DNA of 64,000 bases from an uncultured Planctomycetia bacterium (GCA_964406665.1 CAYOSQ010000001.1:71412-135411), one strand, 5' to 3'. Positions 8,230 through 59,421 are shown, counted from the first letter of the stretch. Program-made: numbers and translations. Notes: generated by a model not told the origin, from the letters alone.

Positions 8230-8421
8230 TCAAGTGTTTTTTTCGTTTTTAAGCTGAACAGAGATCTTAGCCGGCTTAGCGCCTTTCATGCCAAAAAGCC
8301 CTTTTTGCTCCTCGGAAAGCACTTTAACCACAATTTCTTCTCTGGAAACCTTAAGTTCAGCTAGTGCCTTCTGAATGGCTTCTTCTACATTTGAGCCTTC
8401 AAATTCTAAAGGTTTATCCAT
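8230..8421 (-). CDS. Jag/KhpB N-terminal domain-only small protein (63 aa)
   Basis: Sits immediately after yidC where jag normally lies; EAIQKALAELKVSREEIVVKVLSE resembles Jag_N, but no KH or R3H domains follow. Confidence 0.45.
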   Translation of the reverse strand: MDKPLEFEGSNVEEAIQKALAELKVSREEIVVKVLSEEQKGLFGMKGAKPAKISVQLKNEKNT

Positions 8422-10003: not shown

Positions 10004-10006
10004 ATT

Positions 10007-10213
10007 TTATTCTACAGGATCGTAGCCTCCTTCAAATAATTGATTACATCTTGCAACCCTGGAAACACCTTTTATTGTTCCTTTGACAAAACCCCATCTG
10101 TCCAGCGAACTTAAAAAATATTCAGAGCAAGACGGATAATACCTACAACTATGTGGTAGTATAGGGCTGATACATTTCCGATAAAAATTTATGAGAAGCT
10201 TTAGTATTATCAT
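10007..10213 (-). CDS. yidD: membrane protein insertion efficiency factor YidD
   Basis: ISPILPHSCRYYPSCSEY signature. Confidence 0.85.
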   Translation of the reverse strand: MIILKLLINFYRKCISPILPHSCRYYPSCSEYFLSSLDRWGFVKGTIKGVSRVARCNQLFEGGYDPVE

Positions 10214-10221
10214 GGATAGTA

Positions 10222-10359
10222 TCAGACAGCTAGACGCGCGCGGCCTTTGCGACGTCGTCGTTTTAAAACTGCGCGGCCAGAAGCAGAGCGCATTTTCCGA
10301 CGGAAACCATGCGTGCGCTTACCTTTTTTCTTTGTAGGAGTAGTGAGTGTTTTCTTCAT
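10222..10359 (-). CDS. rpmH: 50S ribosomal protein L34
   Basis: Hand translation of the reverse strand gives MKKTLTTPTKKKGKRTHGFRRKMRSASGRAVLKRRRRKGRARLAV; not in the supplied ORF track because it is below the length cutoff. Confidence 0.85.
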   Translation of the reverse strand: MKKTLTTPTKKKGKRTHGFRRKMRSASGRAVLKRRRRKGRARLAV

Positions 10360-10631
10360 GGTTTCAGAATTATAACATAATGGCTGTTGAAGTCAAGTAA
10401 TTTTGGCAGATAAAAATCGCATTGCAAATATTGTTGTTATGAATAACTGTGTTTTATTTTTTTGCATAGATCTGTTTTGGCAAAAATTTTTCATAGCGGT
10501 TTTTTTCACCTAAATAATTTCCTTTTGAGAATTAATAGCTATCAAAAAATGAAGAGAAAAATTTCCTTGAAAAATGTTTTTTCTTTGTTATAATGGTAAC
10601 ACTTAATTACAAAACTGGCTGTGCATAACTT

Positions 10632-10640
10632 GTGAATAAT
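10632..10640 (-). promoter_or_regulatory. DnaA-box-like 9-mer (TTATTCACA on the minus strand) in the rpmH-dnaA intergenic region
   Basis: Matches TTATNCACA; the same 9-mer recurs at 12093..12101. Confidence 0.3.
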
Positions 10641-10714
10641 GTTAATAACCGATTTTCAGTTATAGTGTGTTTACGAATTGCATGTGTTTCTCGCCGAGAA
10701 AATAGAAAGTTGCC

Positions 10715-12061
10715 GTGGAATTAAAAGAATTAAAAACTTATTGGGAACAAGCTCAGGGCTTTATTAAAGATCATGTTGGCCAAGCTGCGTATGAGACTTG
10801 GTTCTCTTCAATCCAGGCCGTACCCGCAAGCCCTGACCAAATCTTCCTTGAGATGCCTGATGACTTTTTCAAAGAGTGGGTGGTTGAACACTATGAAAAA
10901 ATCATACAGGAGTCGCTTAATAATGTTTCCGCTGAGGTCATCAAACTTGCTTTTAGGGTTAATCCTGATGTGATAAAAAAAGATGCTGTTGTTAAAGAAG
11001 TATCTCTCACACCAAGATACCCAATTCAAAACAGAAGACCTGCAGCTAACTTAAATCCGCGTTTTTCTTTTGATAGTTTTGTTGTGGGGCCCAGCAATCG
11101 CTTTACCCATGCTGCCTGTCAAGCCGTGGCTGAATCGCCTGCGAAAGCTTACAATCCGCTATTTATCTACGGTAAAGTAGGCTTGGGCAAAACTCATCTT
11201 ATGCAGGCAGTGGTACAAAAAATACGACAAGGCAAACCCGACTTGACGAGCTGTTATATAACTTCTGAACGCTTTACAAACGAACTTATAAACGCGATTC
11301 AACACCACTCAACCGAAAAATTCCGTCATAAATATAGGGAAATCGATATCCTACTTATTGATGATATCCAATTTATCGCCGGGAAGGAAGCCACACAAGA
11401 AGAATTTTTTCATACTTTTAACGCACTATATGACAACCATAACCAAATCGTGCTTTCTTCTGATAGGCCGCCTAAAGAAATTCAACACATGGAAGAAAGG
11501 CTTGTTTCTCGGTTCGCCTGGGGGCTTATAACTGACATACAACCACCGGATTACGAAACCCGTGTAGCCATTCTAAGGAAAAAAATTGAGAGAGAGCCCG
11601 TTAAGGCTCCTGATGATGTTATAGAATTTATTGCTCAACAAATTCAATCTAATATTCGCGAACTAGAGGGTGCACTTATTCGCGTGGTGGCATACTCGTT
11701 GTTGGAGGAAAAAGAAATTTGTTTAAGTATGGCTCAGGACGTTCTTAAAGATCTAGTGCGAGAAACCAGGGTGAATATCTCGGTTGAGGTTATTCAAAAA
11801 AAGGTGGCGGAAACATTTAATATCTCCATAAATGAACTTAAAGCAAAAAAGAGGAATAAAAACATTGTATTACCTAGGCAAATTGCTATGTTTCTATCTA
11901 GAGAACTTACAAATCTATCTTTGCCGGAAATCGGCGAGTCTTTTGGTGGTAAAGACCACACAACAATTTTACATGCCTGGAATAAAATACAAAGGGTCAT
12001 CAAAGAAGATCGAGACCTAAAATCAACGGTTGATAGAATTGTTCAAGGGTTTAAACAATAA
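10715..12061 (+). CDS. dnaA: chromosomal replication initiator DnaA (GTG start)
   Basis: AAA+ Walker A GKVGLGKTHL, box VII, and a C-terminal DNA-binding domain. Confidence 0.95.
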   Translation: MELKELKTYWEQAQGFIKDHVGQAAYETWFSSIQAVPASPDQIFLEMPDDFFKEWVVEHYEKIIQESLNNVSAEVIKLAFRVNPDVIKKDAVVKEVSLTPRYPIQNRRPAANLNPRFSFDSFVVGPSNRFTHAACQAVAESPAKAYNPLFIYGKVGLGKTHLMQAVVQKIRQGKPDLTSCYITSERFTNELINAIQHHSTEKFRHKYREIDILLIDDIQFIAGKEATQEEFFHTFNALYDNHNQIVLSSDRPPKEIQHMEERLVSRFAWGLITDIQPPDYETRVAILRKKIEREPVKAPDDVIEFIAQQIQSNIRELEGALIRVVAYSLLEEKEICLSMAQDVLKDLVRETRVNISVEVIQKKVAETFNISINELKAKKRNKNIVLPRQIAMFLSRELTNLSLPEIGESFGGKDHTTILHAWNKIQRVIKEDRDLKSTVDRIVQGFKQ

Positions 12062-12206
12062 TACACAAGGTTATACATATATTATTCACAAGACGAATTA
12101 TTATATTATATTTAACTTAAAACACTTAGAAACATATTAACTTATAAACAAACACTATTATAACTATTACTATTTTTATGTTAATAAATATATATAAGGA
12201 GACTCA
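12062..12206 (+). promoter_or_regulatory. candidate oriC / DNA-unwinding region between dnaA and dnaN
   Basis: Extremely AT-rich 145-bp spacer containing TTATTCACA (12093..12101). Confidence 0.35.
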
Positions 12207-13289
12207 ATGAAAATTCAAATTGACAAAGGAGATTTATTAAAAGGTATCCAAACAGTACAAAACACAATATCTTCAAAAATAAGCCTACCCATTTTAAACA
12301 ATATACTTATAGAAACACAGGGTAAAAACTTACGGTTTATAGGTACTGATTTAGATGTTGGTATATCCTGTTTAGCACCTGTTAACATTTTAAGTGAGGG
12401 AGCGATAACTTTACCAGCAAAAAAAATAGGCGATATCATAAGAGAGCTACCAAATGGTGAGGTTACTGTTATTGTTAAAAAGAACAACATGGTTGACATA
12501 GAAAGCGGCAGCTGTAGATTTAAATTAATGGGGTTGCCAAAAGATGAATTTCCAAAACTACCTGAATTTAAAGATAAAGAGTCTATAAAAATACCCAGGG
12601 AAGACTTAAAAGAAATGTTAAACCTAACCTCCTTCGCTGTGTCACATGAAGAAACACGCTATATTTTAAACGGAATTTTACTAGAGGTGAAAAACGGTGT
12701 TTTAAGATTGGTTGCAACCGACGGAAGAAGGCTGGCTTTGGCAGAGAAAAAAATAGATGCAAAAAAAGAGATAAGTGTTATATTGCCGATAAAAGCTGTA
12801 CAAGAACTAGTGCGCAACATTGTAGATGAGGGACCGTTGTCGCTTGTTGTGAGTGGTACACAAGCATTGTTTGAGATGGATGATTTTTTAATGGTTTCTC
12901 GTTTGATTGAAGGAGAGTTTCCTAATTATAACCAAGTTATTCCCGAAGCTACGGAAAATAAGATTAAGGTTGGTCGCGGAGAATTTTTAGCTGCTATTAA
13001 AAGAGCCAATCTTTTGTCTACTCAAGATTCTCAAGCGGTAAAATTTGAAATCTTCAAAAATCGCGTAGTTGTTTCTAAGGTAACCCCAGATTTAGGAGAG
13101 TCTCGAGAAGATGTGGGTGTAGAGTATTCAGGAAAAGAATTTTTTGTGGGATTTAACCCACACTATTTAATAGATGTATTAAAAAATCTCAATCAAGAAA
13201 CCATTGAGCTTGAGGTTACTGAAGCTGATAAACCTGGTGTAGTTAGAGCCCCGGGATATTTGTATCTAGTACTTCCTATGAGGTTGTAG
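12207..13289 (+). CDS. dnaN: DNA polymerase III beta sliding clamp
   Basis: MKIQIDKGDLLKGIQTV... three-domain clamp; dnaA-dnaN synteny. Confidence 0.95.
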   Translation: MKIQIDKGDLLKGIQTVQNTISSKISLPILNNILIETQGKNLRFIGTDLDVGISCLAPVNILSEGAITLPAKKIGDIIRELPNGEVTVIVKKNNMVDIESGSCRFKLMGLPKDEFPKLPEFKDKESIKIPREDLKEMLNLTSFAVSHEETRYILNGILLEVKNGVLRLVATDGRRLALAEKKIDAKKEISVILPIKAVQELVRNIVDEGPLSLVVSGTQALFEMDDFLMVSRLIEGEFPNYNQVIPEATENKIKVGRGEFLAAIKRANLLSTQDSQAVKFEIFKNRVVVSKVTPDLGESREDVGVEYSGKEFFVGFNPHYLIDVLKNLNQETIELEVTEADKPGVVRAPGYLYLVLPMRL

Positions 13290-13290
13290 T

Positions 13291-16103
<2,813 letters not shown>

Positions 16104-16203
16104 CAGTTAAAAGAGAACAGCTGGTTTTTATAATTCTTGTTTTTAAAAATTTTTTGTGATACAATTTGCTCTTAAAACATTTTTATAGTATAAGGATATA
16201 ATA

Positions 16204-18654
16204 ATGAGAAATTTCCAATCTAAAGAAAAAATTATTCCTGTTGGCATAGAAGAGGAGATGAAGGCATCTTATCTTTCGTATGCTATGAGCGTTATTGTTG
16301 GGCGTGCTCTGCCTGACATCAGAGATGGCTTAAAACCTGTGCATCGGCGCATATTGTTTGCCATGCAGGATCTTCATCTGGAGCACAATAAACCTTATAA
16401 AAAAAGCGCTCGAATTGTTGGAGAAACTTTAGGTAAATATCATCCTCATGGAGACATGGCAGTTTATGATGCTTTGGTTAGAATGGTGCAGGAATTTTCT
16501 TTGCGTCATCCGTTGATTGATGGTCAGGGAAACTTTGGTTCTGTTGACGGAGATGCTCCTGCAGCCATGAGATATACTGAGGCACGGCTGGCGTCTATTG
16601 CTTCAGAGATGTTGGTAGACATTGATAAAAACACCGTCGATTTTACACCTAACTTTGATTCTTCTTTAAAAGAACCTTCTGTTTTGCCGGCGAGCCTGCC
16701 GAATCTTTTGCTAAATGGCTCAAGCGGAATCGCTGTTGGTATGGCAACAAATATTCCTTCACACAACTTGGGCGAATTAGTTGACGGCATTACATATCTT
16801 GTTGATAATCCTGAGACAGAAATAAAAGGTCTGATGCGCTATATAAAAGGTCCTGATTTTCCTACCGGTGGAATTATTTGTGGTAAGGGCGGGATTAAAT
16901 CTGCTTTTGAAACAGGACGTGGCAAACTTTCTATCCGGGGTAGAGCGAACATAGAACGTCAGAAAGGCACCAAAGATGCAATAATCGTTTCTGAGATTCC
17001 TTATCAGGTGAACAAGGCAACTCTTATTGAAAACATGGCTCGTCTTGTGCAGGAGAAAACCATCGACGGCATTACTGATATCCGCGACGAATCTGACAAG
17101 AATGGTATGCGTGTTGTTATAGAATTACGCAGAGACGTTGAGCCACAAATAATATTAAATCAGCTTTATAAGCATACTCAATTGGAAACTACGTTTGGTG
17201 TTATCATGCTTGCCCTTGCCGATGGTAGGCCTCATATTTTAAATCTGAAACAGATTTTAGTATATTACATAGATCATCGCAAAAATATCATTAGAAGAAG
17301 AACCAAGTTTGAGTTAGATAAAGCTGAGCGCAGAGCTCATATTTTAGAAGGTTTAAAGATAGCTCTTAAATTCATAGATAAAATAATCAAAACCATCAAG
17401 ACTTCTAAAAACACAGCTGCTGCCAAAGTTGCTTTAATGAAAAATTTTGATTTATCCGATGTGCAAGCTCAGGCAATCCTAGAGATGCAGCTGCAGCGTT
17501 TAACAGCTTTAGAGCGAGACAAAATTGATGCCGAATATAAAGAGTTGCTTAAGAAAATCGAACTGCTTAAAGCCATACTTGCTTCTGAGAAAAAGGTTGA
17601 GGGAATAATTAAAGAAGAGCTTATTGCTATTAAGAAAAAATATGCAGATGAGCGCCGCACGGAAATTATTGCAGAAGTTGAAGAGATTGAAATAGAAGAC
17701 TTAATTGCCGAGGAAGATATGGTAATTACGCTTAGCCACGCAGGATATATTAAACGTTTAGCAGTTAGCGCGTATCGTAAGCAAAAACGCGGCGGTAAAG
17801 GTGTAACTGCTATGGAAACCCGAGAACAGGATTTTGTGAAACATCTTTTTATTGCTTCTACCAAAGACTACCTCTTGATTTTTACCAACAAAGGCCGTGC
17901 TCTATGGCTTAAGGTATACGAGCTACCCATTGCTTCTCGTTCAGCAAAAGGTAAGGCGATAGTTAACCTTCTTCAGGTTGCTTCTGACGAAACAATAACC
18001 TCGGTTGTGGCTGTTAAGGAATTTTCTGAAGATCAATATTTAGTGCTTTGTACAAGAGCAGGGCTTATCAAAAAAACACAACTTTCCGCATTCTCTAATC
18101 CACGTAAGGCAGGTATTGCCGCGATTACCTTAGATAAAGATGATCGTTTGGTTGATGCGGCTCTTGCTGACGGAAAACGCGAGATTTTATTAGCAACTAA
18201 AGAAGGCCAGGCTATTCGTTTTCACGAAAAACATGTTCGCGAAATGGGTAGGCAAGCCAAAGGTGTACGAGCAATCAAGCTTGCTAAAAAAGATGAAGTT
18301 GTAGGCATGGAGGTTCTTCCTCAGGAAATTCATAAAATGGAGATGACCTTTTTAACAGTTACTTCAGGCGGTTTTGCTAAGCGCACAAATTTTGAAGAAT
18401 ATCGCTTGCAAACTCGCGGGGGCAAAGGTATTATTAATCTGAAAGTTACAAGCAAAAATGGCCACGTTGTGGGAGTAAAGGCTATACATAAAGAAGACGA
18501 AATTATGTCGGTTACGCAGCAGGGTATGATAGTGCGCTGTCCGGCAAAAGATGTTCGCGCAAGCGGAAGAAGTACACAAGGTGTGCGCCTGATCAATATG
18601 GGAAAGGGCGACATAGTTTCTTCAGTTACTAGAGTTGTTGCAAAAGAAGAGTAA
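16204..18654 (+). CDS. gyrA: DNA gyrase subunit A
   Basis: [23 protein letters not shown] and catalytic Tyr region; C-terminal beta-pinwheel repeats. Confidence 0.95.
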
Positions 18655-19093: not shown

Positions 19094-20509
19094 ATGGAAA
19101 GAAAGCCAAAAATCATATCTAAACACTCTTCAAAAGCATACCTATTATTTTTAATGGTCATAGGGGTTTGTTTTCTTTCTGCCAATACCTGCTTTGCTGC
19201 TTTCACTTTAAACGCTACTCCTTATGAAGGTGGATTCGACTTACGTTTTGGTTCTGTTGCAGGTGGGGCAAAGGCAAATAAGGAAGTTTCTATTAGCGTA
19301 ACAAGCGATATTGCAAAACAATATCGTGTAATTCAAACTTTTGCTCCTCTTACCAACTCAAAAGGTACAAAGCTGCCAACAAATTCTGTGAGAGTATATA
19401 CATTAAGAGGTTCTAATGCGGCAGGTACTTTGGGCTATGATGTTGAAAGCCCAATTTTTTTAGGCCCGATGGTTCTTTATACTTCTGCAAGCGCTGGCCG
19501 CAGCGATTCTTTTGTTGCAGTTTATTCTGTTGATGTGCCGGCAGATCAGGATCCTGGGCTGTATCGTGGCAGATTGATTTATAGTCTGGAGCCGATTGGA
19601 GCAGCTAACCAGGCACCAGTTATTAAAACACTAAATATATCTGTTGAAGTTGGATCATCTGCACAGCTTAAGGTCGAGACAATAACCGGCGGGAAGACAG
19701 TTATTTTAAAAACTTCCGCAAGTCAACAGGATTTATCACGAGACGTACGCATACAAGTAACTGGTTCTCTGGGCAATCGTTATCGTATTGTACAAAAACT
19801 GTCTAGGCCGATTACTAGTGCAACAGGAAAACAAATTGCCAAAGAGGGTGTATCTCTTTATGCACAAGGTGGAGAAAAAGGACAGCTTGGTATAAAAAAA
19901 CTCAGCTCTTTACCTGCAACGAATGTTATTTTATATACTTCTGACGAGCGCGGCAGCGCCGATGAAATCATTTTAACTTTTGCTTTGAATGATATCGATC
20001 AAGACGCCGGGATTTACCGTGGTGCATTAACATATACGATTGAAAGCTCTGTTCCTGTTAAGGGTGCAGGCATGACACAGATGTTGCCAATAGAAATTGA
20101 GGTGACTCCGTTGTTTAATCTTGTTGTTACAACAGATCATTCGGGCAGCATCGTTTTTAGAGATTTAAAACCGAACCAGCCTCCCAAGACAAGCGTATCT
20201 TATGTTGAGATCAAAACTAATTCTGATAAACCATATCAGGTAATGCAGACGGTTTCTGGTCTTTTAACTACCAAGGAAGGTAAAACAATTCCTGCGGGAT
20301 TTTTTAAATTGAAAACAACATCTGAAGAAAACAAAGATGGAATTAAATATCCTAAAGAGGCTGCTGTAGAGGATGGACAAATGGTTTTATTTACGTCGCG
20401 AGACGGAAAATCTGCGAAGCTGAAAGTTATTTATAAACTGGACATACCAAGAGACATCCATTCCGGTAACTATTCTACCGGAATTATATATTCTTTATTA
20501 GAGATGTAG
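19094..20509 (+). CDS. secreted protein with three tandem SCPU-like (spore coat U / Csu-type pilin-like) domains
   Basis: Signal peptide; three roughly 140-aa repeats each containing an xxYRVIQT-like motif and ending G(L/I)YRG.L.Y(S/T)(L/I)E. Confidence 0.45.
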   Translation: MERKPKIISKHSSKAYLLFLMVIGVCFLSANTCFAAFTLNATPYEGGFDLRFGSVAGGAKANKEVSISVTSDIAKQYRVIQTFAPLTNSKGTKLPTNSVRVYTLRGSNAAGTLGYDVESPIFLGPMVLYTSASAGRSDSFVAVYSVDVPADQDPGLYRGRLIYSLEPIGAANQAPVIKTLNISVEVGSSAQLKVETITGGKTVILKTSASQQDLSRDVRIQVTGSLGNRYRIVQKLSRPITSATGKQIAKEGVSLYAQGGEKGQLGIKKLSSLPATNVILYTSDERGSADEIILTFALNDIDQDAGIYRGALTYTIESSVPVKGAGMTQMLPIEIEVTPLFNLVVTTDHSGSIVFRDLKPNQPPKTSVSYVEIKTNSDKPYQVMQTVSGLLTTKEGKTIPAGFFKLKTTSEENKDGIKYPKEAAVEDGQMVLFTSRDGKSAKLKVIYKLDIPRDIHSGNYSTGIIYSLLEM

Positions 20510-20550
20510 ATGCCTTATTGTAAATCTGACAACGAGGAGGGGAATTACAA

Positions 20551-21171
20551 ATGATTAGAAAAGCAACCATTGCATTGCTAGCGGTATTGTTTTTAGGCAT
20601 GAGTTCAATGTGCTATGCCGACAATATTGTGAACGTAGATGTCAACGCTCAGATCCCCGATATGCTGGAGTTGAGTTCATGGATTAAGTATTTTATGGAC
20701 GAAAACCAAACTCCATTAGGTGATGCTGAAAGCTTTGACTTTGAGACACTGACACATACCCTAGAAGGAGGAGGAGAGGCCGGCGTATGGTTTTCGAGGA
20801 AATGGTTTACCATTTATCTCGTTGCTAATACTGGTGGCAGACGCTATCAGCTTAAGCAAACCTGTACTGGTGTAACCTCTGGTGGCAACGACATCAACAG
20901 CGCATTCGTTGTTACGCCTAATTATTCAGAATATGATGAATTAGGTGGTGTACCACAGGGTCCGATTCCTGGAACAATAGGTGTTCCAAATTTGGCTGTA
21001 TCAACAGACCATGTCCTTTATACAAGTGACACTGGTGGTTTAGCTCGTATAATCCAGGGTATTTACGCTATTCCTAACGAGAGCGAAGTAACTGGATATG
21101 AATCAATTAGTTTTGATACTCCACAGGGTGTTTACGGTGGTGAGGTAGTTCTTACAGCGGTGCTGTATTAA
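20551..21171 (+). CDS. secreted single-domain SCPU-like putative pilus subunit
   Basis: Signal peptide; RRYQLKQT and C-terminal GVYGGEVVLTAVLY, homologous to the repeats in the upstream gene. Confidence 0.4.
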   Translation: MIRKATIALLAVLFLGMSSMCYADNIVNVDVNAQIPDMLELSSWIKYFMDENQTPLGDAESFDFETLTHTLEGGGEAGVWFSRKWFTIYLVANTGGRRYQLKQTCTGVTSGGNDINSAFVVTPNYSEYDELGGVPQGPIPGTIGVPNLAVSTDHVLYTSDTGGLARIIQGIYAIPNESEVTGYESISFDTPQGVYGGEVVLTAVLY

Positions 21172-21176
21172 TATAT

Positions 21177-21360
21177 AGTTAAGGGGAAACAGTTGACCTC
21201 TTGCACAGCGCAGATCTTGTCTTTATAAGCTGCGATAGGCAAAACTTGTTGCCAGCTGAATAATAAATTCAAGAGAAAGCTTGTCATAATCTTTGATTGT
21301 TTGGTATAATATCATATAATATTTATCAAAGATTAAAAGGGGTCTGTGTTTCCCCTTAAC
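21177..21360. repeat. 15-bp perfect inverted repeats (agttaaggggaaaca / tgtttccccttaact) flanking a 154-bp segment that carries a TTGTCA-18-TATAAT promoter
   Basis: IR-L 21177..21191 and IR-R 21346..21360, visible in the sequence. Confidence 0.5.
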
Positions 21361-21391
21361 TATTATAAAGCACTAATTTATAAGGAGGCAA

Positions 21392-22237
21392 ATGAACATA
21401 AGGCATTTGTTGATGAAGAGAATCTGTCTATGGTTTTTAATTTGTGCTGCTTTGTGCTTGTTTGGTGTAGTTTATAATGCTGATGCAAGCACAGTCCGCC
21501 TGCAAAGACCAAAGGTTAGATTGAGCATTCCCTCCGGAAGTACTGAAAGCGGTTCAATTACAGTAGCTAATCCCTCGGATAAGAACGTAAATGTTAAAGC
21601 GTATCTCGAAGACTGGATATATACAGCCACACAAGATGGAATTAAAGATTTTGCTCCGCCAGGGACAACTCCTTTGTCGTGTGCGAAATGGATCAGCTTT
21701 TATCCTGCCGAATTTACTCTGCCGCCGTTTGGGTCTAGGGAAATATTTTTCGTGGTTAAAGTTCCCAAGGCAGTAGACGGTGGACATTATGCAGTATTAT
21801 TTTTTGAAACCGTTGTGGGATCAACTGTAGATGCTACCGGAGTCAATATTTTAATTAAAGGGCGCATTGGGTCATTATTTTATATAGAGGCAGGGGGCGT
21901 ACAAAAAGAAGCAACCATTACAGATATTTCTATTGCTAAAGCAGGTAAGGAAACTGCAATAGAAGCAGTTTTAAATAATATTGGCAACGTTGATATAACC
22001 GCCAACGGTTCTTTCAATATCATCGACAGCAAGGGCATGGTTTTTGCAAGAGGTAAGTTTAATGAGGTTTACACTTTTCCTGGAGATAAGGCGACCATAG
22101 CATCTGCTTGGTCTGCGAAAATTCCTGCAGGAGAGTATGATTTAATAATAACGTTGGACTTAGGCAATAAACCTTTAATATACGAAGCAAAGATTAATGT
22201 AAATGCTGCTGGCGAGGTACGCTATGTTGCCCCTTAA
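21392..22237 (+). CDS. PapD-like periplasmic pilus chaperone-like protein
   Basis: Signal peptide; VRLSIPSGSTESGSITVANPSDKNVNVKAYLEDW, ISFYPAEFTLPPFGSREIFFVV and VNILIKGRIGSLFYIE resemble the N-domain strands of chaperone-usher chaperones. Confidence 0.4.
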   Translation: MNIRHLLMKRICLWFLICAALCLFGVVYNADASTVRLQRPKVRLSIPSGSTESGSITVANPSDKNVNVKAYLEDWIYTATQDGIKDFAPPGTTPLSCAKWISFYPAEFTLPPFGSREIFFVVKVPKAVDGGHYAVLFFETVVGSTVDATGVNILIKGRIGSLFYIEAGGVQKEATITDISIAKAGKETAIEAVLNNIGNVDITANGSFNIIDSKGMVFARGKFNEVYTFPGDKATIASAWSAKIPAGEYDLIITLDLGNKPLIYEAKINVNAAGEVRYVAP

Positions 22238-22258
22238 GAATAGAAAAAAAAGGAGTTT

Positions 22259-25200
22259 ATGCGTAGCTGTAAAAACAGTCAGAGTATTTGTTTAAAAACA
22301 ATCATCGCAAGATGTATTCTTGCGATTCTTACATTGTCCTTTTTTTCTGCAAGCCTTCTTTTTCTCTCCAGCAGCCCAGCTTACTCTGAAGACCTTTCTG
22401 ATTTCCTCTGTGAATTAGCCACCAAATATTATGAGCGCGGAGATTATCCTAACGCGTTACACGAATTCAAAAAAGCTTTAATGATCAATCCCCATAATCG
22501 CACTGCGCAAAAATACATTGCAATTATCAGCGATCTAGAAGAAGTTGTTGTTGAGCCATCACCTTATCTGCCCATCGAAAGCATTCCTCAGGAATACAGA
22601 GACAAAGCTATTAAAAATGCACTGGATAGTTTTGATGAGGTTATTTTTGTAAAAGAGCCATATATCCAAGAAGAAACAGAATCTCAACCACCATTAATTA
22701 TTATTGATTCAGATGACGAACAAACTTTTCCTCAAGAAGAGCTGGATAAGTTTGATGAGGTCAGGGTCTCTAGAGAGCAGACTATTTTGGAAGATGTTCC
22801 TAAAGAACCCTCGATAGTAATATCTCCTGTGCAGGATAGGGAGATTATTGTTCGAAGTGCGCTCGATGAATTCGAAGCACGGTATGGGGCGGAAGATATT
22901 GTAGATATTGTGCCAGAGCCAGAAGAGATTGTTGAGGAAGAGCCCGAACACGAAGAAGCTATTTATTATCCTATCGAACCAGAGGAAGAATTTCCAGAGG
23001 AATTTGTTTCTACATCTTATGTTGAACCTTCCACAGACATAGAAAAGCCAAAGGGTTTTAAGCGTCTTTATCTTAATGTAGAAGTTAGGGCTTCGCAGCC
23101 ACAAACACAAATAAGTTTACAAATAGACAGAGATTTAATAATTATTGGAAGTAATATTGCTAGGTTTCTTGTGATTAATCCTGAAATTTTAGAGATTGTT
23201 AGATTGCGTCCCGACGAGATAAAGCTTGTGGCTAAGAAAATTGGAAGTACTTACGTGCATATCTGGGATGATGAAGGCCGGTGGACTTTTATCGTTCAAG
23301 TGTCACCGTTTCGCTCTGGCAGGCCGACACTTGCCGAGCTATATCGTCAGCAAGCCGAAGAGGCTGGTTCGTTAAAATTCCATTATTATAATGAATGGCG
23401 TTCGTTTTATTCTGGAAGAAGAGCGGATAACCTAACAAGGGATTCTCTTACTCTATATCAAAGCTTGGGTCTTGATATGCAGACTCCTTATGGAGATGTT
23501 GATGGCCGCGTTCAATTAAACAGGCTAAATGAAGAAAGCGAGCTCTCATTTTATACTTTAGGATTAACCGATGGCATGGTAGGTCCGTTTAAGAATTTTG
23601 ATCTACGTGCTTTAGATTATTATATAGATTTTGATAATATTTCTTTTGGTGGTGCGAGCTTGCGCGGTGTGAGGTTAGATGCAGAAGCATTTAATGAAAA
23701 AGTGGATTATACGGTTTTCTGGGGCAAAGAGAAAAGTGGGGCATTTGGTCCACTTGCTCCGGGGCTTGAGGGTTCAAACAAGTCATATCTTAAAGGTATA
23801 AATTTTGGATTCAACTCTCCGGAAAACCTTTATCAGACGCTTTCCTATTTCGCCGGATATGGTTCTGATAGGAGTTCTTTGTTGTTCCAAGATGCCTATG
23901 ATTATACGGGCGAGCTTAACTTAGGCGATACAAAATTATTTACCAACGTCGGACACGATGGCTATTCTCTGGCTTATATGCTAAGAGGTGTATATACCGT
24001 TCCTAAGCTTCAGTTAGCCGGCGAGTTTAGAAATATTGACGATGATTTTTATAGCATAACCGGCAGACCTTATGCATCAGGAGAAGTTGGTGGTTTGGTG
24101 AGCTATCGCTATGCCCCTTCCAGAGATCTAGATATCTCAGGACGCCTGAATGTTTATAGGGACACCTTGTTTCCTAACCCTCAACACAAAGAAAGATATA
24201 ATGCGGATTTCGATACTGCCATACGCTATACCATTAATCCTAGTACATCTATGAGGTTAGATTATTATAATGTTCATGATACCGGCACTATATCGCCGCA
24301 TAAAGATGAGTCTGTAGGATTATCCTTGTACAAAACAATTGATTTCATTAGGCCGCTTAGTACGTTTGTAAACTTAAGACATCAATCTAGTAAAAATCCT
24401 AGTTCGACAACTCTGGACTATAAAAATGAAAAAGCTGGCTTTGGCGTAAGAGTTGGCTTAACCGATACGCTTAATTATTATATCTCCAAGGAATTCAATT
24501 GGCTGGAGGATTATGCCGGAGATGTAGAAAAACCGCATGTTTTTGAGACGGGGCTTGATTATAATACCCAAATTCTCGACAGCCCGTTTTATATAACCTC
24601 TAGGCTTTATTTCCGGGATGAAGAAAATGCTGCTTCAACAAGAAGTTTCTTGGCTGGTGAAGATAATTTAGAAGGACAGGCTGAATTAAGGTATACCCCC
24701 AACGAAGATTTTAATTGCTACGCAAATCTACGAGTTAATAACTACTGGGCGGAAAACGCCGATACTACCAAGCGCACAGAAGCAGAGATTCGTTTCGGTA
24801 CACAATGGACTTTTGATACCGGCTTGAAATGGAATCCCATAGGTAGCATAACAGGCATTGTTTTTAAAGACTTGAATTCAGATGGCAAGCGTCAAGCGGA
24901 CGAGATTGTTATGAAGGATATTAAAATTTTCTTAGGAAGAGAAAAATTTGATATAACCGATGAAGAAGGAGCGTATATCTTTAAAAATATCCGTGCTCGC
25001 AAAGCCTTTGTTTACTTAGATACTAATACGCTACCAGCTGGATATGTGCCGACGGAAGAGAAATCCCAAGAGATAACAATTCAAAACGGCAAACTTATAA
25101 ATGTTGATTTTGGTGTTATAGCGCGTTCCGAAATATATGGTATTGTGTTTAAAGACTTAAATAGCAACGGAGAATTTGATGCTCAAGACGAAGGCGTGAG

Positions 25201-25420
25201 AGATGCTGTTCTATCTTTAGAAGATGGTTTAACAACCTCTACGAATGCAAGAGGTCAGTTTTATTTAAGAGAAGTTGCTCCTGGAAAACACACTCTTACC
25301 CTAGACATAAATAGCCTACCTATTAATCTTATTCCTTTGGTGCCGTTATTTAAAGAGATAGAGGTGTTTGAGGGAATTACCTATGTGCACAATATTCCTT
25401 TGAAAGAAACACAAGACTAA
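22259..25420 (+). CDS. large outer-membrane/cell-surface protein: N-terminal TPR, acidic linker, pilus-assembly (CpaC/secretin-N-like) domain, beta-rich Y/G/D/N region, and two C-terminal Cna-B/SdrD-B-like domains; putative usher-like component
   Basis: Motifs LQIDRDLIIIGSNIARFLVINPEILEIVRLRPDEIKLVAKKIGSTYVHIWDDEG; duplicated GIVFKDLNS(D/N)G...D modules at the C-terminus. Confidence 0.45.
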   Translation: MRSCKNSQSICLKTIIARCILAILTLSFFSASLLFLSSSPAYSEDLSDFLCELATKYYERGDYPNALHEFKKALMINPHNRTAQKYIAIISDLEEVVVEPSPYLPIESIPQEYRDKAIKNALDSFDEVIFVKEPYIQEETESQPPLIIIDSDDEQTFPQEELDKFDEVRVSREQTILEDVPKEPSIVISPVQDREIIVRSALDEFEARYGAEDIVDIVPEPEEIVEEEPEHEEAIYYPIEPEEEFPEEFVSTSYVEPSTDIEKPKGFKRLYLNVEVRASQPQTQISLQIDRDLIIIGSNIARFLVINPEILEIVRLRPDEIKLVAKKIGSTYVHIWDDEGRWTFIVQVSPFRSGRPTLAELYRQQAEEAGSLKFHYYNEWRSFYSGRRADNLTRDSLTLYQSLGLDMQTPYGDVDGRVQLNRLNEESELSFYTLGLTDGMVGPFKNFDLRALDYYIDFDNISFGGASLRGVRLDAEAFNEKVDYTVFWGKEKSGAFGPLAPGLEGSNKSYLKGINFGFNSPENLYQTLSYFAGYGSDRSSLLFQDAYDYTGELNLGDTKLFTNVGHDGYSLAYMLRGVYTVPKLQLAGEFRNIDDDFYSITGRPYASGEVGGLVSYRYAPSRDLDISGRLNVYRDTLFPNPQHKERYNADFDTAIRYTINPSTSMRLDYYNVHDTGTISPHKDESVGLSLYKTIDFIRPLSTFVNLRHQSSKNPSSTTLDYKNEKAGFGVRVGLTDTLNYYISKEFNWLEDYAGDVEKPHVFETGLDYNTQILDSPFYITSRLYFRDEENAASTRSFLAGEDNLEGQAELRYTPNEDFNCYANLRVNNYWAENADTTKRTEAEIRFGTQWTFDTGLKWNPIGSITGIVFKDLNSDGKRQADEIVMKDIKIFLGREKFDITDEEGAYIFKNIRARKAFVYLDTNTLPAGYVPTEEKSQEITIQNGKLINVDFGVIARSEIYGIVFKDLNSNGEFDAQDEGVRDAVLSLEDGLTTSTNARGQFYLREVAPGKHTLTLDINSLPINLIPLVPLFKEIEVFEGITYVHNIPLKETQD

Positions 25421-25471: not shown

Positions 25472-25726
25472 TTATCTTTCATAAAAGCTGTACAATTTAG
25501 CTTCTGTTAAGCGCTCTTCCTGAACACACAGCCTTTTTGTAGTATCTCGAATTTCAGCTTTAGCAGCTTCGATTTCACTTTGTTCTGTGTCCATCTCTAG
25601 CAATGCAGGGATTCTTGCAGAAACAGAAACTCGAGCAGTATTACCTGCCTCTACCGCGCTAGCCATCAAAGCGCAACCCAGCAAAATAATAACTAAAACG
25701 TTTGTAATAATCATTGTCTTTTTCAT
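25472..25726 (-). CDS. small secreted hypothetical protein (start at MKKTMII, preceded by GGAGGTG)
   Basis: Signal peptide followed by a charged helical region; the gene downstream of the tandem riboswitch candidates. Confidence 0.5.
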   Translation of the reverse strand: MKKTMIITNVLVIILLGCALMASAVEAGNTARVSVSARIPALLEMDTEQSEIEAAKAEIRDTTKRLCVQEERLTEAKLYSFYER

Positions 25727-25754
25727 CGGTACCACCTCCATAAATTTTCAAAAA

Positions 25755-25782
25755 AAGCCCCTTCGAAAGAAGGGGCTTTGCA
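25755..25782 (-). terminator. intrinsic terminator (expression platform of riboswitch 2)
   Basis: Minus strand aaagcccctt-ctttcgaa-ggggcttt followed by TTTTTTGAAAATTT, immediately upstream of the CDS start. Confidence 0.55.
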
Positions 25783-25812
25783 AGTAGCAGTTAACGGAAT
25801 CCAAAATAAGGA

Positions 25813-25905
25813 CTACGGCAACCCGACAACCATAAAGACAGCCGATGTCTTTTTAGGCTCAAGGCTTTGTGCCCTACTCTTTCGAAGTAGTTTACTTTTA
25901 AGGAT
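25813..25905 (-). ncRNA. candidate c-di-GMP-I (GEMM) riboswitch aptamer, copy 2 (proximal to the CDS)
   Basis: Minus-strand RNA GUAAACUACUUCGAAAGAGUAGGGCACAAAGCCUUGAGCCUAAAAAGACAUCGGCUGUCUUUAUGGUUGUCGGGUUGCC matches the recalled GEMM-I consensus (GCAAACC, GAAA-capped P1, GGACGCAAAGCC, GGGUUACC-like 3' end). Confidence 0.55.
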
Positions 25906-25929
25906 TTGAAAGAACGTTGCTTCCAACAA

Positions 25930-25960
25930 AAAACCCTAGAATTTTTCTAGGGTTGCTACT
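25930..25960 (-). terminator. intrinsic terminator (expression platform of riboswitch 1)
   Basis: Minus strand ccctagaaaaattctaggg followed by TTTTTTGTTGG. Confidence 0.55.
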
Positions 25961-25961
25961 T

Positions 25962-26042
25962 TTGGCAACCCTGCCGCCTTCCCCCTTTCGGGAATAAGGC
26001 CGTTGGTTTTGCGTCCTTAGATTTCTCTAAGTTTGCCTTTTT
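25962..26042 (-). ncRNA. candidate c-di-GMP-I (GEMM) riboswitch aptamer, copy 1 (distal)
   Basis: Minus-strand RNA GCAAACUUAGAGAAAUCUAAGGACGCAAAACCAACGGCCUUAUUCCCGAAAGGGGGAAGGCGGCAGGGUUGCC; P1 CUUAGA-GAAA-UCUAAG with the GACGCAAAACC core. Confidence 0.5.
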
Positions 26043-26237
26043 CAAAAGCTAATATACTCTATAGAAACTATAGCACACAAAAAGCGCTTTTTCAAGTTGG
26101 CCAGGTAAATTTCTGAAAATTTTTAAACATCCTATTATGACATTTAAGCGTAACCGCTGAATTAGCTTTACTTTAGGTTTCTGCTATGATAGAATAGCAT
26201 TCACATTCAACAATATTTTTTAATCAAAAAACAAAAA

Positions 26238-28067
26238 ATGTGCGGCATAGTAGGTTATATAGGAAGCAATAATGCATTGCCGATGTTAGTTAAGGGTCTG
26301 CAGAGGCTCGAATATCGAGGCTATGATTCTGCCGGCATAGGGGTTATTGCTGAAGGTGAAATAGCAATCCGCAAAAGACCGGGAAAACTTAGGGATCTTA
26401 TGTGGTCTCTTAAACATTTTCCGTTTAAAGAAGCTACTGTTGGTATAGCCCATACGCGTTGGGCAACTCACGGTGTGCCTAATCAAGCCAATGCTCATCC
26501 CCATTCCAGCAATTCTAAAAAGATAGCACTTGTTCATAACGGAATAATTGAAAACTATCAGTCTCTCAAGGATAAATTAATAAAGCAGGGAGTACAATTT
26601 AACTCTGATACTGATACAGAAGTAATAGTACAGCTGATTGATAAATATTACAAGAATGATTTAAAAGAAGCGGTTCTCAAAGTGCTTAGGCTCATAAAAG
26701 GTTCTTATGCCTTAGCCATCATTTCTTTAGATCAGCCCGACAGGATAATTGCAGCTAGGCAGGATTCTCCGTTGATAATAGCTAAGGGTAAAATTGGAAA
26801 TTTCGTTGCCTCTGATTGTCCTGCTATCATGGAATACACAAAAGATGTAGTCTATCTCGAAGATGGACAACTAGCCAGCATTACTAAAAACAATATTGAG
26901 ATTTTTAACGTATCCAGCGGTAAAAAAGTTTCTTATAAATGGCATAAGCTTACATATGATATTTCTGCTGCAGAAAAAGAAGGCTATCCACATTTTATGC
27001 TTAAGGAAATTTTCGAACAGCCCAAGGTGGCCAATAAGATTATCTCGTCTCGCATTTCCGGTAACAAGATAGCATTTAACGAGCTAAAAATAAAGGACAG
27101 CGCTTTAAAGAAGACAAAAAATATCGTTATTGTTGCCTGTGGCACTGCGTATCATGCTGGTCTCGTCGGCAAATATATTATAGAGACAGTTGCGCGCATA
27201 CCGGTTAATGTGGATGTATCAAGCGAGTTTCGTTATCGCGACCCACTAATAGATAAGAACACTTTGGTTATTGCTATAAGTCAATCAGGAGAAACCGCTG
27301 ATACTCTTGCAGCGGTTCGTTTGGCTAAACAGAAAAAGGCAAAGATATTATCTATTTGTAATGTTGTGGGTTCGTCTTTAGTTAGAGATTCTCATGGAGT
27401 GATTTATACCTATGCCGGTCCGGAAATCGGAGTGGCGTCTACTAAGGCTTATACTGCGCAGCTGGAGATCTTGTATTTATTCGGCTTGCACCTTGCCAAG
27501 CTTAGAGGCGCGGTATCTGTGGGAGTTCTCAAGAAGCTTTTGTCGACATTCAAAAATATTCCTCGTTTGCAGAAGAAAATTTTAGCAAGCGAAAAGGCAA
27601 TAAAGCGCATTGCAGAGCGACATCATCATTTTGGAAGCTTCCTATATTTAGGAAGGAACATCAACTTTCCTACAGCACTAGAAGGAGCGTTAAAGCTAAA
27701 AGAAATTTCCTATATTCCGGCAGAAGGATACGCTGCTGGAGAGATGAAGCATGGCCCCATTGCATTGATTGATGAATATAGAGCTGTTGTTTGTGTGGCA
27801 ACCGCGTCTTCCGTATATGAAAAAATGTTATCCAACATTCAAGAAATACGTGCTCGACAGGGAACAGTTGTTGCGGTTGCAAGTCAGAATGATAAAGACA
27901 TACAAAACTATGTAAAAGAAGCTATCTTTATTCCGCGCTCGCAAGAGCTTTTTTCACCACTGCTGACCATTGTCCCTCTTCAGCTTCTTGCATATTATGT
28001 TGCTGTACGCCGTGGTTGCGATGTAGACCAGCCGCGCAATTTAGCAAAATCCGTAACAGTCGAATAG
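26238..28067 (+). CDS. glmS: glutamine--fructose-6-phosphate aminotransferase
   Basis: MCGIVGYIG N-terminal nucleophile, two SIS domains, C-terminal ...KSVTVE. Confidence 0.95.
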   Translation: MCGIVGYIGSNNALPMLVKGLQRLEYRGYDSAGIGVIAEGEIAIRKRPGKLRDLMWSLKHFPFKEATVGIAHTRWATHGVPNQANAHPHSSNSKKIALVHNGIIENYQSLKDKLIKQGVQFNSDTDTEVIVQLIDKYYKNDLKEAVLKVLRLIKGSYALAIISLDQPDRIIAARQDSPLIIAKGKIGNFVASDCPAIMEYTKDVVYLEDGQLASITKNNIEIFNVSSGKKVSYKWHKLTYDISAAEKEGYPHFMLKEIFEQPKVANKIISSRISGNKIAFNELKIKDSALKKTKNIVIVACGTAYHAGLVGKYIIETVARIPVNVDVSSEFRYRDPLIDKNTLVIAISQSGETADTLAAVRLAKQKKAKILSICNVVGSSLVRDSHGVIYTYAGPEIGVASTKAYTAQLEILYLFGLHLAKLRGAVSVGVLKKLLSTFKNIPRLQKKILASEKAIKRIAERHHHFGSFLYLGRNINFPTALEGALKLKEISYIPAEGYAAGEMKHGPIALIDEYRAVVCVATASSVYEKMLSNIQEIRARQGTVVAVASQNDKDIQNYVKEAIFIPRSQELFSPLLTIVPLQLLAYYVAVRRGCDVDQPRNLAKSVTVE

Positions 28068-29016: not shown

Positions 29017-30342
29017 ATGAGGTCAAGAGGATTTTCTTTACAAGAAGTTCTGATTACTATTGTTTTAGTTCTTGTTTTAGGTGGGGCAGCGTTTAAAGCA
29101 CTTGTTGTTGGCCAAAACACATTTTTTTCTAGCTCTGCTCTGCTAGACTTGCAGCAACATGCTCGTGAAGGCATAGATAGAATGACAGATGAATTACGAC
29201 ACAGCGCATCGGGAAAAGTTACAATTTATCAATGTCCTTCAGAAGTATGTGAGGGTGGCGCTATAGCATTTCAGGTTCCTGTAGTTACGGATGATCCTAT
29301 AGCTGGAAGCACATTTAAACCAACCGGCTTTGGTGCCGCACAGAAAAAGTGGGGGTTTGATGGAAGGGAAAGTTCTTCACCAATTATTTATTTGGCTCCT
29401 GCTGCCGGCGGTGCTTTGTCTCAATATAGTGGTAAATTAATTAGATTAACATCCAAAGATCAATATTGTGGAAATGGTATCTGTGAGACCGGAGAAACAA
29501 TAGCTTGTTGTCCTGATTGTAGTTTTGTTTCTGGTGATGGAGTATGTTGTTCTAATTTAGGAGAACGCTCTTGGAATTCTAGCGATTGCGGGGCTTGTTT
29601 TCTTAAAGAGACGCCCATACAGATGGCAGATGGAACTTCAAAAAATATTGAAGATATAAAAATTGGTGATATGGTATTATCTTTTGATGAGCAGGAAAAG
29701 AAGTTAGTGGCTGACGAAGTAAAAAACGTTGCTAAACAAAAAGCAGATAATTATATTATAATAAATGGCCATTTAAGGGTTACACCCAATCATCCGTTTT
29801 ATAGTAATGGTCGATGGATGCCCATAGGAGATCTACAAGTAGGAGATGTTATTTTTACTTCACAAGCCAAAGAAGAGCTTATTACGGAAATTGTAAAAGT
29901 TGAAGATACTGTTGAAGTATATGATATAGAAGTTAATCCATATCATAATTATTTTGCCGGAGGCTATCTAGTGCACAATAAGGAGGTATTGCCAGAAATA
30001 CCACCAGTTATGGAAGGTGGCGGTTCGTTTGAAATACCTGGCGGGCGCAGTTGGCTAGGGCCTCGTTTGTTTCTAGGCATAGCCTTTGCTCAGGAAGTTT
30101 CTCCTTTAGCACCAAATATAGATATGTATGATACATTGCCTGCGCTTGACAGTATATCTAATTATGATATTAAGATTCTTGCAGAAGACGTTAGAGGGGT
30201 TTATTTTCTTGGTACGCCCCTTCCGCCGGATAAGCCAAACACCGTAACAGTATTTGTGGATATGTATAAAGAGATTTTTGGCGGCGGTGACGTGCAGACA
30301 CATTTATCAACAGAGATGAAGTTAAGAAATCTTAGTTTGTAA
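29017..30342 (+). CDS. type IV pilin-like protein (class III signal peptide RG|FSLQE) with a Cys-rich module and an embedded Hint/BIL domain (about nt 29596..29979)
   Basis: N-terminal MRSRGFSLQEVLITIVLVLVL; Hint blocks CFLKETPIQMADGTSKNIEDIKIGDMVLS, TPNHPFY and VYDIEVNPYHNYFAGGYLVHN. Confidence 0.6.
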   Translation: MRSRGFSLQEVLITIVLVLVLGGAAFKALVVGQNTFFSSSALLDLQQHAREGIDRMTDELRHSASGKVTIYQCPSEVCEGGAIAFQVPVVTDDPIAGSTFKPTGFGAAQKKWGFDGRESSSPIIYLAPAAGGALSQYSGKLIRLTSKDQYCGNGICETGETIACCPDCSFVSGDGVCCSNLGERSWNSSDCGACFLKETPIQMADGTSKNIEDIKIGDMVLSFDEQEKKLVADEVKNVAKQKADNYIIINGHLRVTPNHPFYSNGRWMPIGDLQVGDVIFTSQAKEELITEIVKVEDTVEVYDIEVNPYHNYFAGGYLVHNKEVLPEIPPVMEGGGSFEIPGGRSWLGPRLFLGIAFAQEVSPLAPNIDMYDTLPALDSISNYDIKILAEDVRGVYFLGTPLPPDKPNTVTVFVDMYKEIFGGGDVQTHLSTEMKLRNLSL

Positions 30343-50377: not shown

Positions 50378-50514
50378 AAGTAGGCAGGGGGTGGGCTTAA
50401 GGGGATATCCACATAGTTAGACCGAAGGTCGTCAAGAAACCGCTTTCTTGAAACACTACATTTACTCTTTTCTTTGTAGAATTAGATGTTATTCTTTTAG
50501 TAATAGACAGATAA

Positions 50515-50650
50515 AGGTAAACCATCAGAGATGGTGGGACGCAAAGCCACGGGTCTAGGAAGGGTCAGCCTAGATTAATATAAAGTCTTTTTGAAGAATA
50601 TCTTAGGCAATTATCCTTTATTTAGATAGCCGGGTTACCAAAAGGTGGTT
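50515..50650 (+). ncRNA. candidate c-di-GMP-I (GEMM) riboswitch aptamer, copy 3
   Basis: GGUAAACCAUCAGAGAUGGUGGGACGCAAAGCCACGGGUCUAGG...AGCCGGGUUACC; an 11-bp GU-containing stem gccggguuacc-aaaa-ggugguucggc followed by a U-rich tract, then the AAGGAGAG SD and ATG at 50683. Confidence 0.45.
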
Positions 50651-59420: not shown

Positions 59421-59421
59421 A

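Follow-up and report, generated by a model that had tools for sequence, protein, structure and literature searches.

Riboswitches of the cyclic diguanosine monophosphate (c-di-GMP)-I class, also called GEMM-I, form the most numerous type of tandem riboswitch, with 347 doublets and 12 triplets on record (PMC9481103), and these tandems are enriched in the Thermodesulfobacteriota and Deinococcota (PMC12452182). Rare variants of the c-di-GMP-I class sense cyclic AMP-GMP (c-AMP-GMP, that is 3',3'-cGAMP) and have been described as 'snugglers' hidden in the family (Sherlock and Breaker 2020; PMC7266159). The base at position 20 of the aptamer contacts the ligand directly: G accompanies selectivity for c-di-GMP, A selectivity for c-AMP-GMP, and an A-carrying aptamer of Desulfobacca acetoxidans was seen by in-line probing to gain affinity for c-AMP-GMP (Sherlock et al. 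2022; PMC9481103). Two-ligand NOR gates of the OFF/OFF type are known for the S-adenosylmethionine (SAM)-I and adenosylcobalamin (AdoCbl) riboswitches (PMC9481103). The locus described here is a leader with two GEMM-I riboswitches in series, located on the minus strand of a 64,000-nt stretch of DNA, hereafter the window, which is recorded under an uncultured Planctomycetia bacterium (GCA_964406665.1, CAYOSQ010000001.1:71412-135411). The leader precedes a gene for a small secreted protein of 84 amino acids (aa), and its two aptamers differ at position 20, with G in the first and A in the second. At its core the locus adds one further example to the commonest kind of tandem riboswitch and is ordinary in that respect; its notable part is the conserved asymmetry of the two pockets.

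Two GEMM-I aptamers in one leader

The whole window was scanned against Rfam 15 with cmscan at gathering thresholds, the gathering score of the c-di-GMP-I family (RF01051) being 35. Two complete matches, each covering positions 1-87 of the 87 in the model, lie one behind the other on the minus strand: copy 1 at 26047..25961, with 78.2 bits and an E-value of 1.1e-13, and copy 2 at 25906..25814, with 62.9 bits and an E-value of 6.1e-10, both E-values referring to 128 kb searched against 4227 families. Values of this size exclude chance for either match. A first-pass annotation of the window had proposed two GEMM-I segments of about 85 nt in tandem on this strand, and the covariance model bears the proposal out with scores far above the gathering score. 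The sequence strings quoted in that annotation are all present as written on the minus strand, and the span it gave, 25742..26045, covers the element, which in full begins with a promoter-like site (26095) and reaches as far as the start codon (25726, -). The pair fills a 500-nt gap between the divergent gene glmS (26238..28067, +), whose product carries SIS and GATase domains (Pfam), and the open reading frame (ORF) of the 84-aa protein (25726..25472). That the feature is real, rightly placed and rightly assigned to GEMM-I is virtually certain.

Aptamer 1 (25961..26047, -) displays the canonical GEMM-I pocket, with G at position 20 (window position 26037) and a P1b hairpin of the form CUUAGA-GAAA-UCUAAG. 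Aptamer 2 (25814..25906, -) has the c-di-GMP-I fold with a variant pocket, in which position 20 is A (window position 25896) and P1a reads G-U/A-C in place of the usual G-C/G-C. The P1b loop is GAAA in both, a GNRA tetraloop within the two-hairpin fold of P1a/P1b and P2/P3.

Further leaders were obtained from the contigs of protein relatives, and one metagenome contig (L027) was found by DNA pattern. Five lineages were compared: the window together with L006; L007; L027 together with L056; L054; and L055. The leader of L006 is identical to that of the window. L054 and L055 are Candidatus Omnitrophota metagenome-assembled genomes (GCA_042571725.1 and GCA_042567325.1, respectively), and both loci are syntenic with the window, with a divergent glmS on one side and, on the other, a convergent gene for a protein of ~1040 aa with TPR, T2SS-T3SS_pil_N and SdrD_B domains. 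This synteny indicates that the host is an Omnitrophota bacterium. The leader with its tandem aptamers and terminators is kept in L006, L027, L054 and L055, and in L007 as well, there with a degenerate copy 1; the order of parts is common to all lineages, namely promoter, aptamer 1, terminator 1, aptamer 2, linker hairpin, terminator 2, Shine-Dalgarno (SD) sequence and gene.

Copy 2 is far more conserved across the lineages than copy 1. Between the window and L007, a run of 46 nt in the 5' half of aptamer 2 shows no difference, and L027 departs from it by one base, while the small proteins of the related loci are 39-52% identical to that of the window; the RNA is thus more strongly constrained than the protein. 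Over five lineages, 99% of the cells of the Rfam pairs in copy 2 are standard-paired, with two pairs changed on both sides, both in P3; in copy 1 the share is 88%, and both sides have changed in four pairs, three of which belong to P1b. The covariance-model scores carry the claim of membership, and these pair-change counts, from 4-5 related sequences, are supportive, not strong on their own.

Transcription would start from a sigma-70-like promoter (26067..26095, -) composed of TTGAAA, a 17-nt spacer and an extended -10 element, TGc-TATAGT, which together give 10 of 12 matches with the TG in a promoter scan. The promoter is kept in L027, L054 and L055, with an equal -35 element, the 17-nt spacer and TGn-TATATT. 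The start site would lie near 26060, giving a leader of ~334 nt. Terminator 1 (25927..25954, -) consists of AACCCTAGAA-AAA-TTCTAGGGTT (in RNA, AACCCUAGAA-AAA-UUCUAGGGUU) followed by a U-run, has a 10-bp stem at 25954..25932 in the terminator scan, and is kept in L007, L027, L054 and L055 despite sequence changes. Terminator 2 (25750..25779, -) consists of AAAGCCCCTTC-TTTC-GAAGGGGCTTT (in RNA, AAAGCCCCUUC-UUUC-GAAGGGGCUUU) followed by U7; the scan reported its core, 25774..25758, and the rest was read from the sequence. Its stem comprises 11 bp in the minimum free energy (MFE) fold and is kept with compensatory changes in the four other lineages. The pattern scan, which gave four terminator-like sites where 1.2 would be expected over 1.1 kb, recovered both intrinsic terminators that the first-pass annotation had placed behind the aptamers. 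The gap of 15 nt that it had given between terminator 2 and the SD sequence is really 10 nt, as the T-run ends at 25750 and GGAGGTG starts at 25739.

Immediately 3' of aptamer 2 stands a linker hairpin (25795..25817, -), CGUAGUCC...GGAUUCCG, which is present in both MFE and consensus folds. Its stem (CGUARUCC...GGAUUYCG) is kept in all five lineages, the loop is variable and a conserved GUYAA follows; it has no fitting role in either the terminator or the anti-terminator model. The leader itself contains no ORF of at least 50 aa on the minus strand between 25742 and 26237, as had been claimed for this space of some 500 nt, and the sole overlapping ORF is one of 66 aa on the plus strand (25587..25787), antisense to the small gene. 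The regulated gene (25472..25739, -) begins with the SD sequence GGAGGUG at 25739..25733, followed by ATG at 25726, and its 84 codons end with a stop at 25472. The small secreted-protein gene announced downstream of the switches (25472..25726) is thereby confirmed as an ORF with a signal peptide and the SD sequence GGAGGTG; this sequence and its spacing are conserved in the homologous loci.

Predicted switching direction

The moment of decision was mimicked by folding transcripts cut just before the 3' arm of a terminator. Aptamer and terminator share no nucleotides in either unit and both form together in the full MFE fold; in unit 2, the aptamer-constrained fold is likewise compatible with terminator 2. 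In the cut transcripts the 5' arm of the terminator pairs instead with a segment inside the aptamer.

In unit 1 this alternative pairing, anti-terminator 1 (25949..25972, -), joins AGGGUUGC (25972..25965), the 3' strand of the P2 base of aptamer 1, to GCAACCCU (25956..25949) in the 5' arm of terminator 1. It is the MFE structure of the cut transcript in all five lineages, and its formation breaks aptamer 1, AGGGUUGC adjoining the C92 contact. The same segment is the best in-unit duplex partner of the arm in each of the five lineages. In the window the duplex amounts to -14.3 kcal/mol, a value equalled by none of 500 shuffled arms, and one of its pairs, G:C in the window, is A:U in L054 and L007. 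L007 keeps terminator 1 and its anti-terminator despite the degenerate copy 1. The RNAalifold consensus of unit 1 was poor because MAFFT misaligned the terminators, and per-lineage folds were used in its place.

In unit 2 the competing strand (25871..25884, -) is CGAAAGAGUAGGGC, which spans the GAAA tetraloop, P1b's 3' strand and the junction located before the A47 contact. AGCCCCUUCUUUC (25777..25765), the 5' arm of terminator 2, pairs with it (25884..25871) in the MFE folds of prefixes of 135-145 nt, through CGAAAGAG/CUUCUUUC and GGG/CCC. This anti-terminator is the MFE structure in four of the five lineages, and in all five the arm finds its best partner in the CGAAAGAGUAGGGC segment. In L054 and L055 the junction GGG has become GGA, the terminator 5' arm CCC has become UCC and the 3' arm GGG has become GGA, a three-way change of the kind that two strands competing for one arm would give. 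Another candidate for this anti-terminator, GGGUUGC with GCAA-AG-CCC, was dropped since, in the alignment, neither L027 nor L007 preserves it.

Since each terminator arm finds its alternative partner within the aptamer, while aptamer and terminator are compatible, both units have the topology of an OFF switch. The OFF direction is thus predicted from thermodynamic folding together with limited covariation, and it is highly probable that the leader contains two independent OFF switches in series, a tandem OFF/OFF GEMM-I arrangement. The tandem OFF arrangement put forward in the first-pass annotation agrees with these folds.

Pocket bases and competing explanations

In the cmscan alignments, the base at position 11 of the model is unpaired and directly adjoins the P1a pair on its 5' side. 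We take this base to be G20 in the numbering of the Vc2 aptamer, which contacts one guanine of c-di-GMP, and the mapping is consistent with A47 following the 3' strand of P1a. The equivalents of the pocket bases G20/A47/C92 are G/A/C in copy 1 and A/A/C in copy 2, so that A47 and C92 are kept in both. Position 20 of copy 1 is G in the window, L006, L027, L054 and L055, and U in L007; in copy 2 it is A in every one of the five lineages (window/L006, L007, L027/L056, L054 and L055). The conservation of this order, G and then A, suggests that the two aptamers are not interchangeable, and on the sequence evidence the two switches are probably not equivalent. It had been claimed that both copies sense c-di-GMP and yield a steep, digital response; this is not established, given A20 in copy 2 of all five lineages and G in copy 1 of four.

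According to the model that we favour, a leader transcribed from the sigma-70-type promoter would carry two complete and independent GEMM-I riboswitches one after the other, and each would comprise an aptamer with its anti-terminator and intrinsic terminator. Once its ligand is bound, an aptamer would retain the segment that could otherwise anneal to the terminator's 5' arm (the 3' strand of the P2 base for unit 1; the GAAA tetraloop with the 3' strand of P1b and the junction for unit 2), leaving the terminator free to form. RNA polymerase would have to pass both OFF units to reach the gene of the 84-aa secreted protein. Copy 1, with G20, would read c-di-GMP, and copy 2, with A20, would read c-AMP-GMP. 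The outcome would be a two-input gate of the NOR type, in which the gene is on only when the levels of c-di-GMP and of an A-containing cyclic dinucleotide (most probably cGAMP) are both low. Whether cGAMP, and not c-di-GMP, is what copy 2 senses in vivo, a matter judged here from one pocket nucleotide, is an evenly balanced question, and the full explanation with its two ligands stands at about the same even chance. More tentative still, and slightly below even, is the specific proposal of a natural NOR gate formed by paralogous aptamers for c-di-GMP and 3',3'-cGAMP, in which the anti-terminator of unit 2 starts from a ligand-gated GAAA tetraloop and junction.

A number of observations weigh against this model, and several of them favour a particular alternative. 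Both aptamers may answer to c-di-GMP, perhaps with unequal affinities, in which case the shut-off would be steeper, digital or set at two thresholds; this homotypic tandem has a substantial probability, if somewhat short of an even one. The Vc2 mutant G20A still binds c-di-GMP tightly, a point in favour of the homotypic tandem, and one Rfam family matches both copies. Tandem c-di-GMP-I riboswitches are moreover the commonest tandem type and are read in just this way (PMC9481103; PMC12452182), and the A-variant of D. acetoxidans (aptamer 3) lost little of its c-di-GMP affinity and kept most of it, indicating that A-variants can be promiscuous (PMC9481103). Within the 64-kb window no GGDEF motif and no cGAMP synthase was seen, CD-NTases not having been searched for. 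Against the homotypic tandem stands the G/A split: four of the five lineages preserve it (L007 having U in a degenerate copy 1), and A in copy 2 is common to all five, while the protein has diverged to ~40% identity; were G and A equivalent, the near-invariant 5' half of aptamer 2 would likewise be difficult to account for.

Other doubts concern copy 1 and the direction of switching. Copy 1 of L007 (L007 47..127) is degenerate, with 33.2 bits, below the gathering score, a truncated P1b and U at position 20, and copy 1 of L055 (3630..3758) scores 45.9 bits and is interrupted by a 61-nt insertion that forms two hairpins between the P1b stem and the 3' strand of P1a; the two-input design is therefore not universally kept. 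Together with the much higher conservation of copy 2, these cases would fit a leader in which only copy 2 matters and copy 1 is a decaying duplicate whose terminator attenuates constitutively. This is improbable, as in the window, L027 and L054 copy 1 reaches 76-79 bits and outscores copy 2, and its intact pocket, the compensatory changes in P1b and the co-varying anti-terminator speak for selection on function there, the window included. As to direction, anti-terminator 2 is long-range (~105 nt) and could form only by melting a stable local hairpin, in L054 and L055 its duplex is energetically no better than shuffles, and the covariation counts are small, since just 4-5 related lineages are compared. 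The known c-AMP-GMP riboswitches of Geobacter, tandem ones included, are ON switches that activate expression (PMC6456294), and a third GEMM-I of the window also looks ON. If the tandem pair behaved likewise, ligand would prevent termination and the logic would be AND; neither terminator overlaps its aptamer, however, both form together in the MFE fold, and the conserved alternative partner of each 5' arm inside the aptamer is OFF topology. The ON reading of the pair was rejected on the lack of overlap and retains a very low probability. That there is no regulatory RNA here at all, the matches being due to chance or to an unannotated coding region, is next to inconceivable: E-values of 1e-13 and 6e-10, a leader free of ORFs and structure-preserving substitutions across the lineages refute it, and no point was found in its favour.

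Genomic setting and comparison with known systems

The 84-aa product carries a signal peptide with a cleavage site between VEA and G. A first search returned the protein itself, a 95% variant and one 43% relative, and a profile search extended these to an orphan family of seven proteins, two of which are annotated as hypothetical proteins of Candidatus Omnitrophota bacterium (NCBI). The protein has no Pfam or NCBIfam match, and its AlphaFold model is of low confidence, with a predicted local distance difference test (pLDDT) score of 67 and a predicted template modelling (pTM) score of 0.25. A four-gene cluster (19094..25420, +) converges on the riboswitch-controlled gene and is syntenic in L006 and L054. 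It encodes proteins of 471, 206 and 281 aa without Pfam or NCBIfam match and a fourth of 1053 aa with TPR, T2SS-T3SS_pil_N and SdrD_B domains, and may be a functional partner of the small secreted protein.

The third c-di-GMP-I riboswitch of the window (50506..50642, +; 62.8 bits) has G at position 20. It lies upstream of a gene (50683..54732, +) for a 1349-aa protein with a signal peptide and M4/M36 metallopeptidase, FG-GAP and ASPIC/UnbV domains. Its hairpin, GCCGGGUUACC-AAAA-GGUGGUUCGGC followed by UUUCUAUUU, uses as 5' arm the aptamer's own 3' strand; aptamer and terminator are mutually exclusive, and this riboswitch therefore looks ON, opposite to the tandem pair. The window also encodes a protein with GAF and HD-GYP-type (Pfam HD_5) domains (56289..57590, +), a candidate cyclic-dinucleotide phosphodiesterase. 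The third GEMM-I and this protein together indicate that the organism uses cyclic-dinucleotide signalling.

Elsewhere in the window, the region 8414..18654 has the gene content of a replication-origin neighbourhood, with yidC (-), dnaA, gyrB and gyrA, and the sign of the GC skew reverses near 8-12 kb; these genes and the change of skew indicate that the window is chromosomal and close to the replication origin. A 441-aa protein (29017..30342, +) unites a prepilin-type N-terminal methylation motif with a Hint/pretoxin-HINT (intein-like) domain, an unusual fusion, and adjoins a 923-aa protein without family match. At 59389..60243 (+), an RNase T-type exonuclease is fused to a WYL domain.

Searches for the pattern of A20 with a U:A pair in P1a placed the variant pocket in a wider context. 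On genome contigs the pattern returned four single, non-tandem GEMM-I aptamers, the other nine matches being due to chance, and the window's own genome was not recovered; the single aptamers belong to metagenome-assembled genomes of Schekmanbacteria, Desulfurivibrionaceae and another Omnitrophota, and to Desulfosporosinus fructosivorans (L010, L012, L013 and L020). In metagenomes the search yielded one new homologous tandem leader, L027, and otherwise lone aptamers (for example L035 and L037), except for L025, which has two GEMM-I-clan aptamers ~1.1 kb apart. Several of the metagenome matches are assigned by Rfam to the variant family c-di-GMP-I-GGC (RF03167). The small-protein alignment, used as a protein-level query against the Joint Genome Institute (JGI) metagenomes, brought up no relatives.

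If the favoured model is true, the leader would be the first sign that the uncultured Omnitrophota, a phylum essentially without experimental genetics, use cGAMP signalling and possess an OFF-type riboswitch for it, and riboswitch signalling by cGAMP would reach beyond Geobacter-type bacteria. Should aptamer 2 prefer cGAMP, one short leader would merge two cyclic-dinucleotide messengers into a single decision. The locus would then offer a compact natural OFF/OFF pair with near-identical scaffolds and unlike specificities, of use in biosensors and synthetic circuits. The locus also marks the orphan secreted protein of 84 aa, encoded beside a pilus or secretin-like gene cluster, as a putative target of second-messenger control.

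The closest described systems are the c-di-GMP-I doublets and triplets, such as Bc3-5 of Bacillus thuringiensis (Zhou et al. 2016; 347 doublets, PMC9481103), which likewise place several complete GEMM-I riboswitches, each with its own expression platform and independent of the others, in series in one 5' untranslated region. These tandems are treated as same-ligand and pseudo-cooperative and their hosts are Bacillota or Thermodesulfobacteriota, whereas the locus described here has pockets that differ in a conserved manner, G and then A, and an Omnitrophota host. The 347 known doublets may include mixed G/A pairs that have gone unremarked. A pair joining a c-di-GMP-I aptamer to a c-AMP-GMP aptamer is absent from the table of natural logic gates (PMC9481103, Table 2), in a comparison that excludes the 2015 primary c-AMP-GMP literature. 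In the known GEMM-I/AdoCbl system, a G-type and an A-type GEMM-I occur in one genome region, and their specificity was read from the same pocket base and then tested by in-line probing; there each GEMM-I is paired with an AdoCbl riboswitch, the GEMM-I is predicted to be ON (NOT A AND B), and G-type and A-type do not share one leader.

The GEMM-Ib riboswitches of Geobacter, including the tandem upstream of omcAHG / GSU2885 (PMC6456294), share with the present locus the GEMM-I fold, A at position 20, the possibility of a tandem arrangement and terminator platforms. The Geobacter tandems are A/A, ON and located before cytochrome and pilus genes, whereas here the pair is G/A, predicted OFF and located before the gene of a small orphan secreted protein, with a cGAMP selectivity that is proposed from sequence. 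The logic itself is most akin to that of the SAM-I/AdoCbl NOR gate at metE of Bacillus clausii (Sudarsan et al. 2006, as summarized in PMC9481103), where two OFF switches with their own terminators also follow one another. In that summary the gate joins two unrelated aptamer classes and two metabolites, whereas the leader described here would join paralogous aptamers for related second messengers.

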